Below are positions 11,658 to 58,260 of a stretch of 64,000 nt of DNA, in pieces. Numbering within the stretch: the first letter of the stretch is position 1; each line of letters opens with the position of its first letter. A program made the position numbers and the translations under genes. Source of the stretch: Chloroflexota bacterium (GTDB lineage Bacteria; Chloroflexota; Dehalococcoidia; SM23-28-2; RBG-16-64-32); contig JBBISJ010000006.1 in the NCBI GenBank assembly GCA_037441345.1, positions 3,530 through 67,529 on the forward strand, given 5' to 3'. The notes beneath the pieces are model-generated. The model did no database searches. It was not told where the DNA came from and was given only the letters and a program-made list of their open reading frames with translations.

Positions 11658-12015
11658 TGGTGGAGACGGAGGGGAATTGAACCCCTCGTCCAGAAGAAAC
11701 CCGGCCTGGATGTCCTACAAGCTTAGCCGTCGCTTTGATCTTGCCCGCCGTACCGCCGTCGGCCACGTAACCGGCAGGCCAGCCGATGGTCTTTTGTCCC
11801 CCTTATCGGCGTGGGGAGGACAGCACCCCGACATTACGTCGCCGGACTCCGCCCATCGGGGTGAGGCCTGAGCCAGGCGTCGCTAGCCTAAATTAGGCGG
11901 CGAGAGCGTACTGGTTAGTGTTGCCAGTTGCTTTTGCGCCGGTCGATTAACGAGGATCCGGCGTCCTCGGCTTGCAATCCGGGCCCAACTTTCCCTGTCG
12001 AACCCTTGCGTCCCC
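11658..12015 (-). ncRNA. ssrA: tmRNA (SsrA), about 358 nt; tag reading frame ends ...NQYALAA-UAA
   Basis: 5' GGGGACGCAAGGGUUCGACAGGG and 3' GGGGUUCAAUUCCCCUCCGUCUCCACCA (tRNA-like acceptor and T-arm); tag codons GGC AAC ACU AAC CAG UAC GCU CUC GCC GCC UAA at 11893..11925 (- strand). Confidence 0.85.
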
Positions 12016-21986: not shown

Positions 21987-22016
21987 CGTAGGGGCGCGTC
22001 ATGATGCGCCCCTACG
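21987..22016. repeat. REP-like 30-nt palindrome, copy 1 (CGTAGGGGCGCGTCATGATGCGCCCCTACG)
   Basis: identical 30-mer also at 28657..28686; near-perfect inverted repeat. Confidence 0.8.
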
Positions 22017-24849: not shown

Positions 24850-24869
24850 TTCCACTCTCCACTCTCCAC

Positions 24870-25835
24870 TCACGGCACCATCACGACCCGCCCGAACGCC
24901 TGCCGGCTCTCGATGTACCGGTGCGCCTCAGCGGCCTCGGACAGCGGATATGTCCGGTCGATCACGACACGCAGCTTCCCATCGGCCACGTCGCGGATCA
25001 GGCCCTCGACCAGCGGCCGCCCGCGCATCGGCTCGAACATGAGAGAGCCGCCGAAGAACACGCCGGTCAGGGAGCGGTTCATCTCGCTCAGCTTGCCCAC
25101 GTCGAGAGCACGCGACTCCGAACGGCCGGCGTTACCCACGCTCACGATCCGCCCGTGGTAGGCCGTCGCGTCGATGCTCCCAAGCAGCGTCGTCCCCACC
25201 GAGTCTACGACGAGGTTGACGCCCCCGCCCGACGCCGCCTTCACCTTCGCCACCCAGTCGCCCTCGCGGTAGTTGATGCCGTGGTCCAGGCCGAAGTCCT
25301 TTAGCCGATCCAGCCTCTCGTCGCTCGACGCGGTCGCCAGCACCGTCGCACCGGCCTGCTTCGCCAGCTGGATCGCCGCCAGCCCAACGCCCCCCGCGCC
25401 GGCCTGGATCAGCACCTTCTCGCCCGCCTGCAACTTCCCGAACTCGAACAGGCAGTCGTGCGCAGTGCCGTACGCTATCGGCACGCAGGCCGCCTGCGCC
25501 GGATCCATGCCGTCGGGTACCGGAAACGTCTGCATTGCCGCCACGGCAACCCGCTCGGCGTGCGACCCAAACGGCATCACTGCCACGACCATCTGCCCCA
25601 CCTGCCGGTCGGTCACTGCCGAGCCGACCTCTCGAACGATGCCCGCACACTGGTAGCCGACGATGTGCGGCCTGGACGCCATCTCGCCACCCGCCCGATT
25701 CAGCACGTCGCCGCCCTCGATCGAGATCGCCTTCACGTCAAGGGCCACAGCCCCCGGCGCGCATTCCGGATCGGGCCTGTCCTCGTAGCGGAACACGTCG
25801 GGCGATCCGGTCTCATAGTAAACAGCGGCTTTCAT
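24870..25835 (-). CDS. zinc-type alcohol dehydrogenase / NADPH:quinone oxidoreductase (MDR family)
   Basis: MKAAVYYETGSPDVFRYEDRPDP N-terminus and a Rossmann GAGGVGLAAIQLAK. Confidence 0.8.
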   Translation of the reverse strand: MKAAVYYETGSPDVFRYEDRPDPECAPGAVALDVKAISIEGGDVLNRAGGEMASRPHIVGYQCAGIVREVGSAVTDRQVGQMVVAVMPFGSHAERVAVAAMQTFPVPDGMDPAQAACVPIAYGTAHDCLFEFGKLQAGEKVLIQAGAGGVGLAAIQLAKQAGATVLATASSDERLDRLKDFGLDHGINYREGDWVAKVKAASGGGVNLVVDSVGTTLLGSIDATAYHGRIVSVGNAGRSESRALDVGKLSEMNRSLTGVFFGGSLMFEPMRGRPLVEGLIRDVADGKLRVVIDRTYPLSEAAEAHRYIESRQAFGRVVMVP

Positions 25836-26894: not shown

Positions 26895-28652
26895 ATGCCT
26901 GACCTCCAATCCCTCCCCAAAGACGAGCGCCTCGAGCGCATGCGTCACTCCGCCGCCCACATTATGGCCGAGGCCGTCCTCGAGATGTTCCCCGAGGCGA
27001 AGCTCGGCATCGGGCCGCCCATCGACACCGGCTTCTACTACGACTTCGACCTCCCCCGCGCGCTCTCAACCGACGACCTGCCGGAGATCGAGGAGCGCAT
27101 GCGCCGGCGCATCGAGTCCGACGCGGCGTTCCAGCCGTCCACCATCACCAGGGACGAGGCTCGCGCCATGTTCGCCGACCAGCCGTACAAGATCGAGCTG
27201 ATCGACGAGATCCCCGAGGACGAGGAGATCGGCCTCTACCGCCAGGGCGAGTTCGTCGACCTCTGCCACGGCCCCCACGTCAGCACCTGCGGCCAGGTGC
27301 CGGCCTTCAAGCTCATGTCCGTCGCCGGCGCCTACTGGCGCGGCAGCGAGGACCGGCCGATGCTCCAGCGCATCTACGGCGCCCTCTTCGACACGCAGGA
27401 GGAGCTGGACGAGTACCTCCACAACCTGGAGGAAGCGCAGCGCCGCGACCACCGCCGCCTCGGCCGGGAACTCGACCTCTTCTCCTTCCACGAGGACTTC
27501 GGCCCCGGCCTCGTCTACTGGCACCCAAAGGGCGGCCGCGTCCGCACGATCATCGAGGACTTCTGGCGCCGCGCCCACTTCGACGCCGGCTACGACCTCG
27601 TCTACACGCCCCACATCGGGAAGTCCACGCTCTGGCAGACGAGCGGCCACCTGGACTTCTACAACGAGAACATGTACTCGGCGATGGATATCGACGGGCA
27701 GGACTACTACGTCAAGCCGATGAACTGCCCCTTCCACATCCAGATCTACAAGAGCGACGTCCGCAGCTACCGCGACCTCCCTATCCGCATGGGCGAGCTC
27801 GGCACCGTCTACCGCTACGAGCGCTCCGGCGTCCTCCACGGCCTCCTGCGCGTCCGTGGCTTCACCCAGGACGACGCCCACATCTTCTGCCGCCCGGACC
27901 AGGTCCGCTCGGAGGTCGAGCGCTGTGTCGACTTCATGATGTTCTTCCTCGGAGCCTTCGGCTTCGAGAAGTTCCACGTTTACCTCTCCACCCGCGACCA
28001 GGCCGGCAAGTGGGCCGGCTCGCTCGAGGACTGGGACATGGCGACGAACACCCTCCGCGACGTGATCGAGGACCGCAAGCTGCCCTACGACGTCGACGAG
28101 GGCGGCGCGGTCTTCTACGGGCCCAAGATCGACGTCAAGATGATCGACGCCATCGGCCGCGAGTGGCAGTGCACCACCATCCAGTTCGACTTCAACCTGC
28201 CGGAGCGGTTCGACGTCAGCTTCATCGGCGAGGAAGGCTCGCGGCAGCGGCCGTTCATGGTCCACCGGGCACTGCTCGGCTCCATCGAGCGCTTCTTCGG
28301 CGTGCTCGTCGAGCACTACGCCGGCGCCTTCCCGATGTGGCTCGCGCCCGTCCAGGCGTCCGTCATCCCCATCGCCGACCGCCACATCCCCTACGCCGAC
28401 GAGGTCGCCGCCGAGCTGCGGGCCGCCGGCCTGCGCGCCGAGGTCGACGCCCGCAACGAGCGGATGCAGGCCAAGATCCGCGACGCCCAGCTCCAGAAGG
28501 TGCCGTACATGCTCGTTGTCGGCGACCGCGAGGCCGAGGCCCGCGCCGCCGCCGTCCGCCTCCGCTCAGGCGAGGACCTGAAGGCCCTGCCCGTGACGGA
28601 GATCATCGCCCGCATGCAGGCCGAGGCCGCCGTCCAGGAGTTCCGGGCCTAA
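26895..28652 (+). CDS. thrS: threonine--tRNA ligase (short form lacking the N-terminal TGS domain)
   Basis: editing-domain HSAAHIMAEAV, class II motifs (FRYERSGVLHGLLRVRGFTQDDAHIF) and the anticodon-binding C-terminus. Confidence 0.9.
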   Translation: MPDLQSLPKDERLERMRHSAAHIMAEAVLEMFPEAKLGIGPPIDTGFYYDFDLPRALSTDDLPEIEERMRRRIESDAAFQPSTITRDEARAMFADQPYKIELIDEIPEDEEIGLYRQGEFVDLCHGPHVSTCGQVPAFKLMSVAGAYWRGSEDRPMLQRIYGALFDTQEELDEYLHNLEEAQRRDHRRLGRELDLFSFHEDFGPGLVYWHPKGGRVRTIIEDFWRRAHFDAGYDLVYTPHIGKSTLWQTSGHLDFYNENMYSAMDIDGQDYYVKPMNCPFHIQIYKSDVRSYRDLPIRMGELGTVYRYERSGVLHGLLRVRGFTQDDAHIFCRPDQVRSEVERCVDFMMFFLGAFGFEKFHVYLSTRDQAGKWAGSLEDWDMATNTLRDVIEDRKLPYDVDEGGAVFYGPKIDVKMIDAIGREWQCTTIQFDFNLPERFDVSFIGEEGSRQRPFMVHRALLGSIERFFGVLVEHYAGAFPMWLAPVQASVIPIADRHIPYADEVAAELRAAGLRAEVDARNERMQAKIRDAQLQKVPYMLVVGDREAEARAAAVRLRSGEDLKALPVTEIIARMQAEAAVQEFRA

Positions 28653-28656
28653 CACC

Positions 28657-28686
28657 CGTAGGGGCGCGTCATGATGCGCCCCTACG
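28657..28686. repeat. REP-like 30-nt palindrome, copy 2, immediately after the thrS stop
   Basis: identical to 21987..22016; may serve as a thrS transcript-end hairpin. Confidence 0.8.
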
Positions 28687-29168
28687 CCCATCATGGACCT
28701 CTGTCGAAGCCCTTCAGGCCCGTTGGGGACCGCATTCCGCCCATCCTGAGGACCGCAGCATCTCGAAGGGCCGTCATTCCCGCGCAGGCGCCTGCCCGCC
28801 TTGTGAGGGGGAATCCATGGCTCAATCAGAGGGGATTTATACCCGCCGGTTGATTGTGTTTTCGCGGTCAGGTTCAGTCTTTGATTGTGCCGCGGCTGAA
28901 TAATTGCTTTTCTCGCGACAGGCCGGGCGTTTTGTGTCTGCGGGGCCGGTGAGGAACACCCTCGCTGTTTGATTGCCTCCGATCCATGGGCGTGACCCGG
29001 AGGATTCAATTCGAGCGGCGGTCTTGCTGGGCAGGGAGCATGTGGGCATGAGAGCATCGTAACGGAGGGGCGGGGCGATCTCCGAGGGGGAAGTGGCGCG
29101 GGCGGGTGAACGGGAGCCTGGCCCCGGCGGCCGACCCCACCGTCATTCCGGCGAAAGCCGGAATCCCA

Positions 29169-29330
29169 TCACGTGCCATTGGCGCCTGGTGACTCGTCCG
29201 CATCCTCACCGATAGCCCCCACCCAGGCCCTCGCGGTGCTCCAAACGCGCTTGACCAGGTCGCTCGTCACTCCCGTGTACAGGGTGCCGTTGCGCTTGCT
29301 GGCCATGATGTAGACGAACGGCTGTTTGTC
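29169..29330 (-). pseudogene. GIY-YIG nuclease (UPF0213/YhbQ-like) remnant, frameshifted and truncated
   Basis: PFVYIMASKRNGTLYTGVTSDLVKRVW (GIY...YIG) in frame; the expected continuation EHREGLGGGYR is in the +2 frame and then hits a stop; no ATG start. Confidence 0.45.
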
Positions 29331-29440
29331 CAATGCAGGCCAATCGTCATTGATTCCGGCCCTGCAGGCCCGTTGGGCGTTCGCCGGAACGACGGAATGG
29401 CACGAATAAGCTGAACGGGGTGAGGGCAGCCTGCCGGGTC

Positions 29441-29542
29441 GCTGGCTCCCTGGCTGCTGGCTCCTGGCTCCCGGCTCCCGGCTCCTCGGCTCCTGGCTCC
29501 TGGCTGCTGGCTCCTGGCTGCTGGCTCCTGGCTGCTGGCTCC
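29441..29542. repeat. tandem heptanucleotide repeat (GGCTSCY) x ~14
   Basis: GGCTCCT/GGCTGCT/GGCTCCC units are contiguous; translation of this repeat explains the QQPGASSQEP low-complexity N-terminus of ORF 29169..29597. Confidence 0.85.
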
Positions 29543-29623
29543 TTCCGTTTGATGGCGCCCAAACGCCTGTGCTATTATCCGGACATAGCAGTGACATCAG
29601 CCATTACCAAGGGGAACTAGACT

Positions 29624-30214
29624 ATCGCCCGCGAGCTTCGCACGAACGAGCGGATCCGCGCGCGCGAAGTCCGCGTCATAGGAGCGAACGGGGAAAACTA
29701 CGGCGTTATCCCCTTCTCCGAGGCGATGAACCGGGCCAGGGAAACCGGCCTTGACCTCGTGGAGGTTGATGCCAACGCGAACCCTCCCGTCTGCCGGATA
29801 CTGGACTACGGCAAGTTCAAGTACGACCAGGCGAAGAAGGAGCGCGAGGGACGCAAGCACCAGAAGGGGACGATGATCCACGAGGTGCGCCTCCGCCCCC
29901 GGACGGGACAACATGATATCGACCTGAAGGTACGGATCGCCGGCCGGCTGCTGGCGGAAGGCGACAAGGTGAAGCTCTCCGTCATGTTCAGGGGCCGCGA
30001 GATGTCTCACCCAGAGGTGGGCCAGGAAGTGCTGGACAAGGCGCTGGCCGGGCTTGGAGACCTGGTGAGCGTCGAGAAGCCGCCCGGCATGGAGGGCCGC
30101 TTCCTGACGGTGATCCTGACGCCGAACGCGAAGAAGCCAGTGGCCGCGAAAGCGGCGGTGGTGGAGGCAGCGCCGGAGGCGGAACCAGAGAAGGCAGAGG
30201 AAAAAGTTGGCTAA
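29624..30214 (+). CDS. infC: translation initiation factor IF-3, with a non-AUG (AUC) start
   Basis: ...ERIRAREVRVIGANGENYGVIPFSEAMNRARETGLDLVEV...; an in-frame TAG lies at 29618-29620, so the N-terminal domain must start at ATC 29624, 8 nt after an AAGGGG SD; the first ATG (29726) would delete the N-domain. Confidence 0.75.
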   Translation: MARELRTNERIRAREVRVIGANGENYGVIPFSEAMNRARETGLDLVEVDANANPPVCRILDYGKFKYDQAKKEREGRKHQKGTMIHEVRLRPRTGQHDIDLKVRIAGRLLAEGDKVKLSVMFRGREMSHPEVGQEVLDKALAGLGDLVSVEKPPGMEGRFLTVILTPNAKKPVAAKAAVVEAAPEAEPEKAEEKVG

Positions 30215-30871: not shown

Positions 30872-30946
30872 GGGGCAGTACCTCAAGGGTAGAGGATCAG
30901 TCTTATAAACTGACGGTTGCGGGTTCGAGTCCTGCCTGCCCCACCA
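30872..30946 (+). tRNA. tRNA with anticodon UAU (tRNA-Ile, AUA-decoding type), CCA encoded
   Basis: acceptor GGGGCAG paired with CTGCCCC, D-stem CCTC/GAGG, anticodon stem TCAGT/ACTGA with loop CTTATAA, T-arm GCGGG-TTCGAGT-CCTGC, discriminator A. Confidence 0.7.
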
Positions 30947-49734: not shown

Positions 49735-49812
49735 GTGAACAGTAGCGTATCGGAACAATGGAACAGTAGAACAATGCCGTCCTGTTCAATTCTTCTATTG
49801 CTCAACTGTTCC
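49735..49812. repeat. GAACAAT 8-bp-periodic array, locus B (GGAACAAT GGAACAGT AGAACAAT then TGTTCAAT TCTTCTAT TGCTCAAC TGTTCC)
   Basis: three direct octamers followed by four inverted-type octamers; lies between purC and the PPOX-family gene. Confidence 0.65.
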
Positions 49813-49844
49813 GGAAACCCGCGGTCCGCGGAGCTTGAATAGAC

Positions 49845-50283: not shown

Positions 50284-50350
50284 GTGGAACAATAGAACAA
50301 TGGAACAACTGAACAATTCTGCATCTATTCAATTGTTCGACTGTTCAATT
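50284..50350. repeat. GAACAAT 8-bp-periodic array, locus C (GGAACAAT AGAACAAT GGAACAAC TGAACAAT TC...TTCAATTG TTCGACTG TTCAATTG)
   Basis: four direct octamers, a 10-nt spacer, then three inverted octamers; contains the GAACAATT-N12-AATTGTTC palindrome. Confidence 0.7.
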
Positions 50351-58221: not shown

Positions 58222-58232
58222 CATAGGATTCA

Positions 58233-58260
58233 GGGTCGAGGGTCGAGGGTCGAGGGTCAA
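58233..58260. repeat. tandem heptamer (GGGTCGA)x4 (TCGACCC x4 in the gltX orientation), ending 8 nt before the gltX ATG
   Basis: GGGTCGAGGGTCGAGGGTCGAGGGTCAA is contiguous. Confidence 0.85.

Follow-up and report, generated by a model that had tools for sequence, protein, structure and literature searches.

The window, a 64,000-nt stretch of DNA, carries a heptanucleotide tandem array directly upstream of the promoter of infC, the gene encoding IF3. We consider it likely that this array is an ordinary heptanucleotide LSSR (micro/minisatellite), recently expanded by slippage in junk DNA and ending just short of a conserved promoter. Using Tandem Repeats Finder, we located the array at 29442-29543 (period 7, 14.3 copies, 86% matches, 3% indels, score 144), and it is the single strongest repeat of the window, all others scoring ≤54. 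In-register parsing resolved it into 14 units of GGCTSCY on the plus strand (29444..29543), in agreement with the roughly 14 tandem copies reported in a preliminary description of this DNA. As expected of an LSSR, the units belong to the 5–11-nt class, are arranged head to tail and extend far beyond the length attributable to chance.

The array is built from GGCTCCT (7 units), GGCTGCT (4 units) and GGCTCCC (3 units). Contrary to the preliminary description, it is not perfectly contiguous, because units 1 (GGCTCCCT) and 6 (GGCTCCTC) are 8 nt long, giving 100 nt as 12 × 7 + 2 × 8 and, in the Tandem Repeats Finder alignment, the 3% indels. The proposed reading of its complement as (AGGAGCC)n was accurate for 7 of the 14 units, with the other 7 reading GGGAGCC or AGCAGCC. 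A two-unit pattern, GGCTSCYGGCTSCY, allowing ≤1 mismatch, matched 12 times in the 64-kb window where 1.07 matches were expected; 11 of the 12 lie within the array, and none of 100 shuffles reached this count. The six units nearest the promoter make up a perfect higher-order block with 14-nt spacing, (GGCTGCTGGCTCCT)x3 (29502..29543, plus strand), which is the youngest and most slippage-prone part of the array. Since the array has a perfect triplicated 14-mer on its promoter side and degenerate or 8-nt units on the opposite side, we infer that it originated by stepwise slippage followed by decay. Growth would have proceeded by replication slippage, in 7-nt and then in 14-nt steps, inside an expanded and debris-filled thrS-infC spacer.

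infC occupies 29624..30214 on the plus strand, and its product has both the IF3_N and the IF3_C domain in complete form. Upstream, the frame is closed by a TAG at 29618-29620, and infC must therefore start at the non-canonical ATC codon at 29624, which is preceded by a Shine-Dalgarno sequence, AGGGGA, at 29610-29615. The distance of about 80 nt between array and infC given in the preliminary description was exact, as the array ends 80 nt before this codon. A consensus scan combined with the alignment of 21 loci defined a predicted infC promoter at 29549..29578 (plus strand), composed of a -35 hexamer, TTGATG (29549-29554), an 18-nt spacer and an extended -10, TGc-TATTAT (29570-29578), of which the TATTAT hexamer lies at 29573-29578. 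For this comparison, 80 related infC loci with an IF3 identity of 48-86% were fetched from metagenomes, the upstream 260 nt were read in the 29 closest, and the last 100 nt were aligned for 21 of these. The TTG of the -35 and an extended -10 of the form TGTGnTAnnnT are invariant in all 21 (IF3 identity ~61-86%), and the leader GTG, the Shine-Dalgarno sequence and the AT(T/C/A) start are likewise conserved in the aligned loci. Judged by sequence comparison, the conserved -35 and extended -10 are the phylogenetic footprint of a real infC promoter.

Five nucleotides separate the end of the array from the -35 hexamer downstream; with respect to the predicted transcription start, the array covers positions of about -42 to -141, so that it lies outside both the -35/-10 spacer and the predicted infC 5′UTR. 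A change in copy number therefore cannot alter the -35/-10 spacing, and the suggestion in the preliminary description that such an array changes promoter spacing did not survive, given that the -35 it stops short of is conserved in 21 relatives. The companion suggestion, that the complement provides decoy Shine-Dalgarno sites, gained no support; it requires a minus-strand transcript, and a consensus scan for a minus-strand promoter able to drive transcription through the array found no promoter-like site. Nor does the array qualify as a promoter UP element, an A/T-rich tract at about -40 to -60, since its G+C content exceeds 70% and its plus strand contains no A.

The array is absent from all 80 related infC loci, in none of which do so much as two GGCTSCY units stand side by side. 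The array is thus missing at the orthologous position while the adjoining promoter is conserved, which is the rapid turnover characteristic of LSSRs. This heptamer array was not found again in ~280 kb of sequence from relatives, and a search for further copies within the 64-kb window also returned none. On these comparisons, the array is lineage-specific. The genes that precede infC vary as well, with a small Cys-rich protein encoded upstream in the closest relatives and a biotinyl-domain protein in others. In two relatives (L148 and L152), thrS is the immediate upstream neighbour of infC and the spacer measures only ~60-190 nt, while the closest ThrS relative (L205, 90% identity) has a restriction-modification system, not infC, downstream of thrS. 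Named homologues carry the source labels Dehalococcoidia or Chloroflexi, and the organism is assigned to this group accordingly.

Further features were noted in the same promoter regions. All infC starts in the clade are non-canonical, with ATC in the window and in L126 and L142, ATT in most relatives and ATA in L144-L157. A GCGTCT box located ~7-12 nt upstream of the -35 is conserved in many relatives (L127-L141 and L143) and absent from the window, L125 and L126; it could be the site of an upstream regulator that was lost or displaced in the window. Relative L137, whose IF3 is 78% identical, carries (ATCTTCC)x3 (positions 532-552 of that locus) within its infC promoter, between TTGATG and TGTGCTAACAT. 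This insertion lengthens the promoter spacer by ~15 nt and may leave the promoter reliant on its extended -10.

In the E. coli paradigm, thrS, infC, rpmI and rplT form a cluster and infC has a non-canonical start codon. The window keeps this gene order and the non-canonical start; it differs from the E. coli-type cluster in that repeat debris, together with the heptamer array, has swollen the thrS-infC spacer to 970 nt. The upstream neighbour, thrS (threonyl-tRNA synthetase; 26895..28652, plus strand), encodes tRNA-synt_2b, HGTP_anticodon and tRNA_SAD domains, and infC is followed by rpmI, rplT, tRNA-Ile and then pheT on the minus strand. ARAGORN placed the tRNA-Ile at 30872-30946 with the anticodon TAT, which is uncommon in bacteria.

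Directly 3′ of the thrS stop, the spacer begins with a REP-like 30-nt palindrome, CGTAGGGGCGCGTCATGATGCGCCCCTACG (28657..28686), a second copy of which lies at 21987-22016. Further along, a GIY-YIG nuclease pseudogene remnant on the minus strand (29241..29330; DKQPFVYIMASKRNGTLYTGVTSDLVKRVW) was recognized by its Pfam profile (23.2 bits against a cutoff of 22.6), covering positions 2-27 of the 78 in the profile. Its coding sequence is frameshifted, with ...DLVKRVW in one frame and EHREGL... in another, and is then truncated. The remnant is bracketed by 20-nt inverted repeats that are 90% complementary (29140-29159 and 29376-29395, together delimiting 29140..29395), and the left arm belongs to a hairpin, GTCATTCCGGCGAAAGCCGGAATCC (29136-29161), of which two further copies occur in L205. 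The array itself occupies a non-coding site, as expected of a unit length not divisible by three, with this pseudogene on one side and the infC promoter on the other; the ORFs that overlap it are artefacts, and its intergenic placement in the preliminary description was correct.

Two short-read assemblies of the same organism, the MAG GCA_034434195.1 and a Logan assembly of SRR11582173, were compared with the window. Both break inside the array, where MAG contig 101 (DAOTZW010000101.1) ends at 29470; MAG contig 78 begins at 29474 and the Logan contig at 29512. Short-read assembly is thus reproducibly interrupted at the array. Across stretches of 6.3 kb and 5.4 kb, the alignments to the window showed mismatches within the array only, namely T>A at 29526 and the opening base of the Logan contig. 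The precise number of units is uncertain, because these two assemblies break inside the array and the figure of 14 rests on the assembly of the window.

A sister heptamer repeat, (TCCACTC)x3, lies 4.6 kb from the array at 24851..24871 (plus strand). It is present in 4 copies in the MAG, and this change from 3 to 4 copies is the sole difference between the window and DAOTZW010000101.1 over 7.6 kb. The repeat sits in a short gap between convergent genes, straight after a TAA stop. The preliminary description had called heptamer arrays classic substrates of slipped-strand mispairing; for heptamers in this organism the claim held, the one-unit change being seen at the sister locus, and present-day copy-number instability of the infC-upstream array is most likely. 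Given its absence from relatives and its junk context, the array is also most likely selectively near-neutral.

Perfect repeats of at least 3 copies with a unit of 5–11 nt are, in the window, exclusively made of 7-nt units; 2 were observed, against 0 in 100 Markov simulations. Relatives bear additional heptamer repeats with unrelated units. One further perfect repeat of the window, (AGGGTCG)x3.9 at 58232-58258, is identical in the window, the MAG and the Logan contig. It is separated by 5 nt from the start codon (ATG at 58226, minus strand) of a gltX-like gene for a class-I aminoacyl-tRNA synthetase (PF00749), where the ribosome-binding site of that gene would be expected. The preliminary description regarded tandem repeats near a translation-factor gene as unusual; the point is weak, as this lineage also has heptamer repeats in the infC promoter of L137 and at the gltX-like start codon. 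Elsewhere in the window, two AT-rich blocks (49752-49815 and 50285-50350) each contain GAACAAT-type 8-mers in direct orientation and, after these, copies in inverted orientation (ATTGTTC); the blocks flank a small PNPOx-like gene and resemble large palindromic operator sites.

Heptanucleotides are the most abundant class of long SSR in most prokaryotic genomes, and polymerase slippage has been held responsible (Mrazek et al. 2007, as summarized in PMC4692102 and PMC4679880). A scan for (GGCTSCY)x4 across one genome per species returned at least 120 loci in unrelated genomes. The matches listed include Streptomyces, Amycolatopsis, Gemmatimonadales, Planctomycetota, Chloroflexota and others, with arrays of 4-27 units that are frequently located at contig ends. 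Of the 105 listed arrays in high-GC genomes, 71 were classed as intergenic by a rough gene heuristic based on GC3. The same heuristic apparently places arrays of 14-15 units inside long opposite-strand ORFs of high GC3 at three Streptomyces and Amycolatopsis loci (L015, L046 and L105), where the array is possibly a coding low-complexity repeat. None of the at least 120 listed loci resembles the window locus in its flanks. We therefore rejected a mobile element, as the flanks of the listed arrays in other genomes are unrelated to those in the window and the array is thus not part of a conserved element. We likewise rejected a special motif. In viral contigs, (GGCTSCY)x4 occurred at 33 loci, against 9, 52 and 8 for three permuted heptamers of the same composition, so that the controls are about equally common; with the motif not exceptional, its recurrence across phyla is convergent.

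No Rfam family matched near the array, either at the gathering score or at E values up to 5, and the only matches in the whole window were a tmRNA and two tRNAs. The tmRNA gene lies at 11658-12015 on the minus strand and encodes the tag peptide GNTNQYALAA. RNA folding of 29420-29660 gave z = +1.0 relative to shuffles, and the 521-nt segment 29040-29560 gave z = +0.57; the minimum-energy fold of the latter pairs a G-rich stretch (29060-29130) with the array, a pairing that has no statistical support. As single-stranded DNA, the array folded worse than shuffles on both the plus (z = +2.3) and the minus strand (z = +2.65). A structured RNA (leader or riboswitch) and slipped hairpin DNA were rejected on the basis of the missing Rfam match and of folds that are not better than those of shuffles.

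It is unlikely that the array is a contingency-type modulator, whose copy number would tune infC-rpmI-rplT transcription through DNA adjacent to the -35 or through a leader hairpin on thrS read-through transcripts. Its distance of only 5 nt from the -35 speaks for this role, as do the minimum-energy pairing of the array with 29060-29130 and the other heptamer repeats, in the L137 infC promoter spacer and at the gltX-like start codon; pressed against the -35 of the infC operon, the array could affect transcription via alpha-CTD/UP-type contacts or local topology. There is also a heptamer precedent in the (ATCTTTC)n repeat of H. influenzae hmw1A/hmw2A, which resembles the array in unit length (7 nt), in copy number (more than 10) and in lying upstream of a gene, and which is transcribed in the 5′UTR, where it forms an RNase III-processed hairpin that controls a surface adhesin (PMC12721329). 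The array, in contrast, lies upstream of the -35, outside the -35/-10 spacer and the predicted 5′UTR, has no significant structure (the long-range fold being no better than shuffles), precedes an essential translation operon and is missing from all relatives. infC is an essential housekeeping gene, already autoregulated through its non-canonical start codon. Repeats that make promoters phase-variable sit in the -35/-10 spacer, the 5′UTR or the ORF, or separate a regulator site from the promoter, so that expression follows unit number, and they govern genes that profit from stochastic ON/OFF or graded switching (surface, restriction-modification or host-interaction genes); the array lies outside the spacer and the predicted 5′UTR, has no known regulator site upstream of it, and is followed by infC, rpmI and rplT. 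A broader version of the idea, which we judge to be very unlikely, sees the heptamer repeats of this lineage as contingency loci, or mutable ‘tuning knobs’, for the translation apparatus, by which subpopulations would vary in translation capacity. It would draw on the infC array, the repeat in the ribosome-binding region of the gltX-like gene and the promoter-spacer repeat of L137; the array itself would work via contacts upstream of the promoter or, on read-through transcripts, via an HMW-like leader hairpin.

The array might instead be a cluster of protein-binding sites (for a nucleoid protein or regulator) or of CCNGG methylation sites, and thereby influence the infC promoter or the local chromosome structure. 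Its 7-nt phasing brings every third unit onto one helical face, CCYGG occurs at 10 of the 13 unit junctions, and the first 8-nt unit yields, on the letters alone, a loose sigma-54-like TGGCTC-N5-CTGCT. However, the paired heptamer occurs nowhere else in the 64-kb window or in ~280 kb of relatives, the array is not conserved at orthologous promoters and no candidate binding protein was identified, making this role highly improbable. An artefact of assembly, affecting the array or its length, would fit the breaks in both short-read assemblies, yet the sequence of the array is common to three independent assemblies: of its 100 nt, 97 are covered by the two MAG contig ends taken together, with one SNP, and the final 32 by the Logan contig. 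The existence of the array is therefore secure, and we regard an artefact as extremely improbable. Translation of the array, whether as the N-terminal part of the minus-strand ORF 29169..29597 or inside the plus-strand ORF 29420..29620, is scarcely credible, even though both ORFs are open across it and the MAG annotation calls a 99-aa gene here. The 7-nt period runs through all three frames, and the plus-strand ORF is simply the infC frame remaining open as far as the TAG in front of the ATC start. The minus-strand ORF fuses the GIY-YIG remnant with a translation of the array; its homology is confined to 26 residues (93-118) from a frameshifted, truncated domain, its ~33 N-terminal residues are translated array, and its ATG falls inside the infC leader/5′UTR. 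The preliminary description had already dismissed this ORF as an artefact, rightly in our analysis.

Among described repeats, the array most resembles the heptanucleotide LSSRs of prokaryotes, which are likewise made of head-to-tail 7-nt units, intergenic, lineage-specific and assembly-breaking. Their polymorphism by insertion or deletion of whole units is seen in this organism at the (TCCACTC) sister repeat, the 7-nt unit is the dominant long-SSR class in the window also, and nothing essential differs. Single-motif heptamer families, such as the STRR heptamers of cyanobacteria, GGGAATC in Xanthomonas and GGGGAYT in Nostoc (PMC4692102) or TAACTGA in Beggiatoaceae (PMC4679880), share with the array that they are intergenic heptamer repeats, often near gene starts or ends; they vary among close relatives and their function is unknown (PMC4692102, PMC4679880). 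In these families, however, a single motif is found at tens to hundreds of loci in each genome, whereas the motif of the array has no second locus in the 64-kb window, where the remaining heptamer repeats carry unrelated units (TCCACTC and AGGGTCG). Some of these families can form G-quadruplexes, while the array has GG runs only.

Read as an LSSR, the array, which lies just outside the infC core promoter, encodes nothing and forms no stable RNA or DNA structure; its maximal effect would be to have displaced older upstream DNA by 100 bp from the promoter. It explains the short-read assembly breaks between thrS and infC and the spurious ORF call there. Were the array to tune infC-rpmI-rplT expression, core translation genes would, unusually, be under the influence of a mutable repeat; the anatomy of the array argues against this. 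Our findings point to a new instance of a known LSSR class, located beside the infC promoter in the genome of an uncultured Dehalococcoidia-like bacterium. They add a Chloroflexota/Dehalococcoidia-like lineage to the genomes whose long SSRs are dominated by 7-nt units, with one one-unit polymorphism directly observed.
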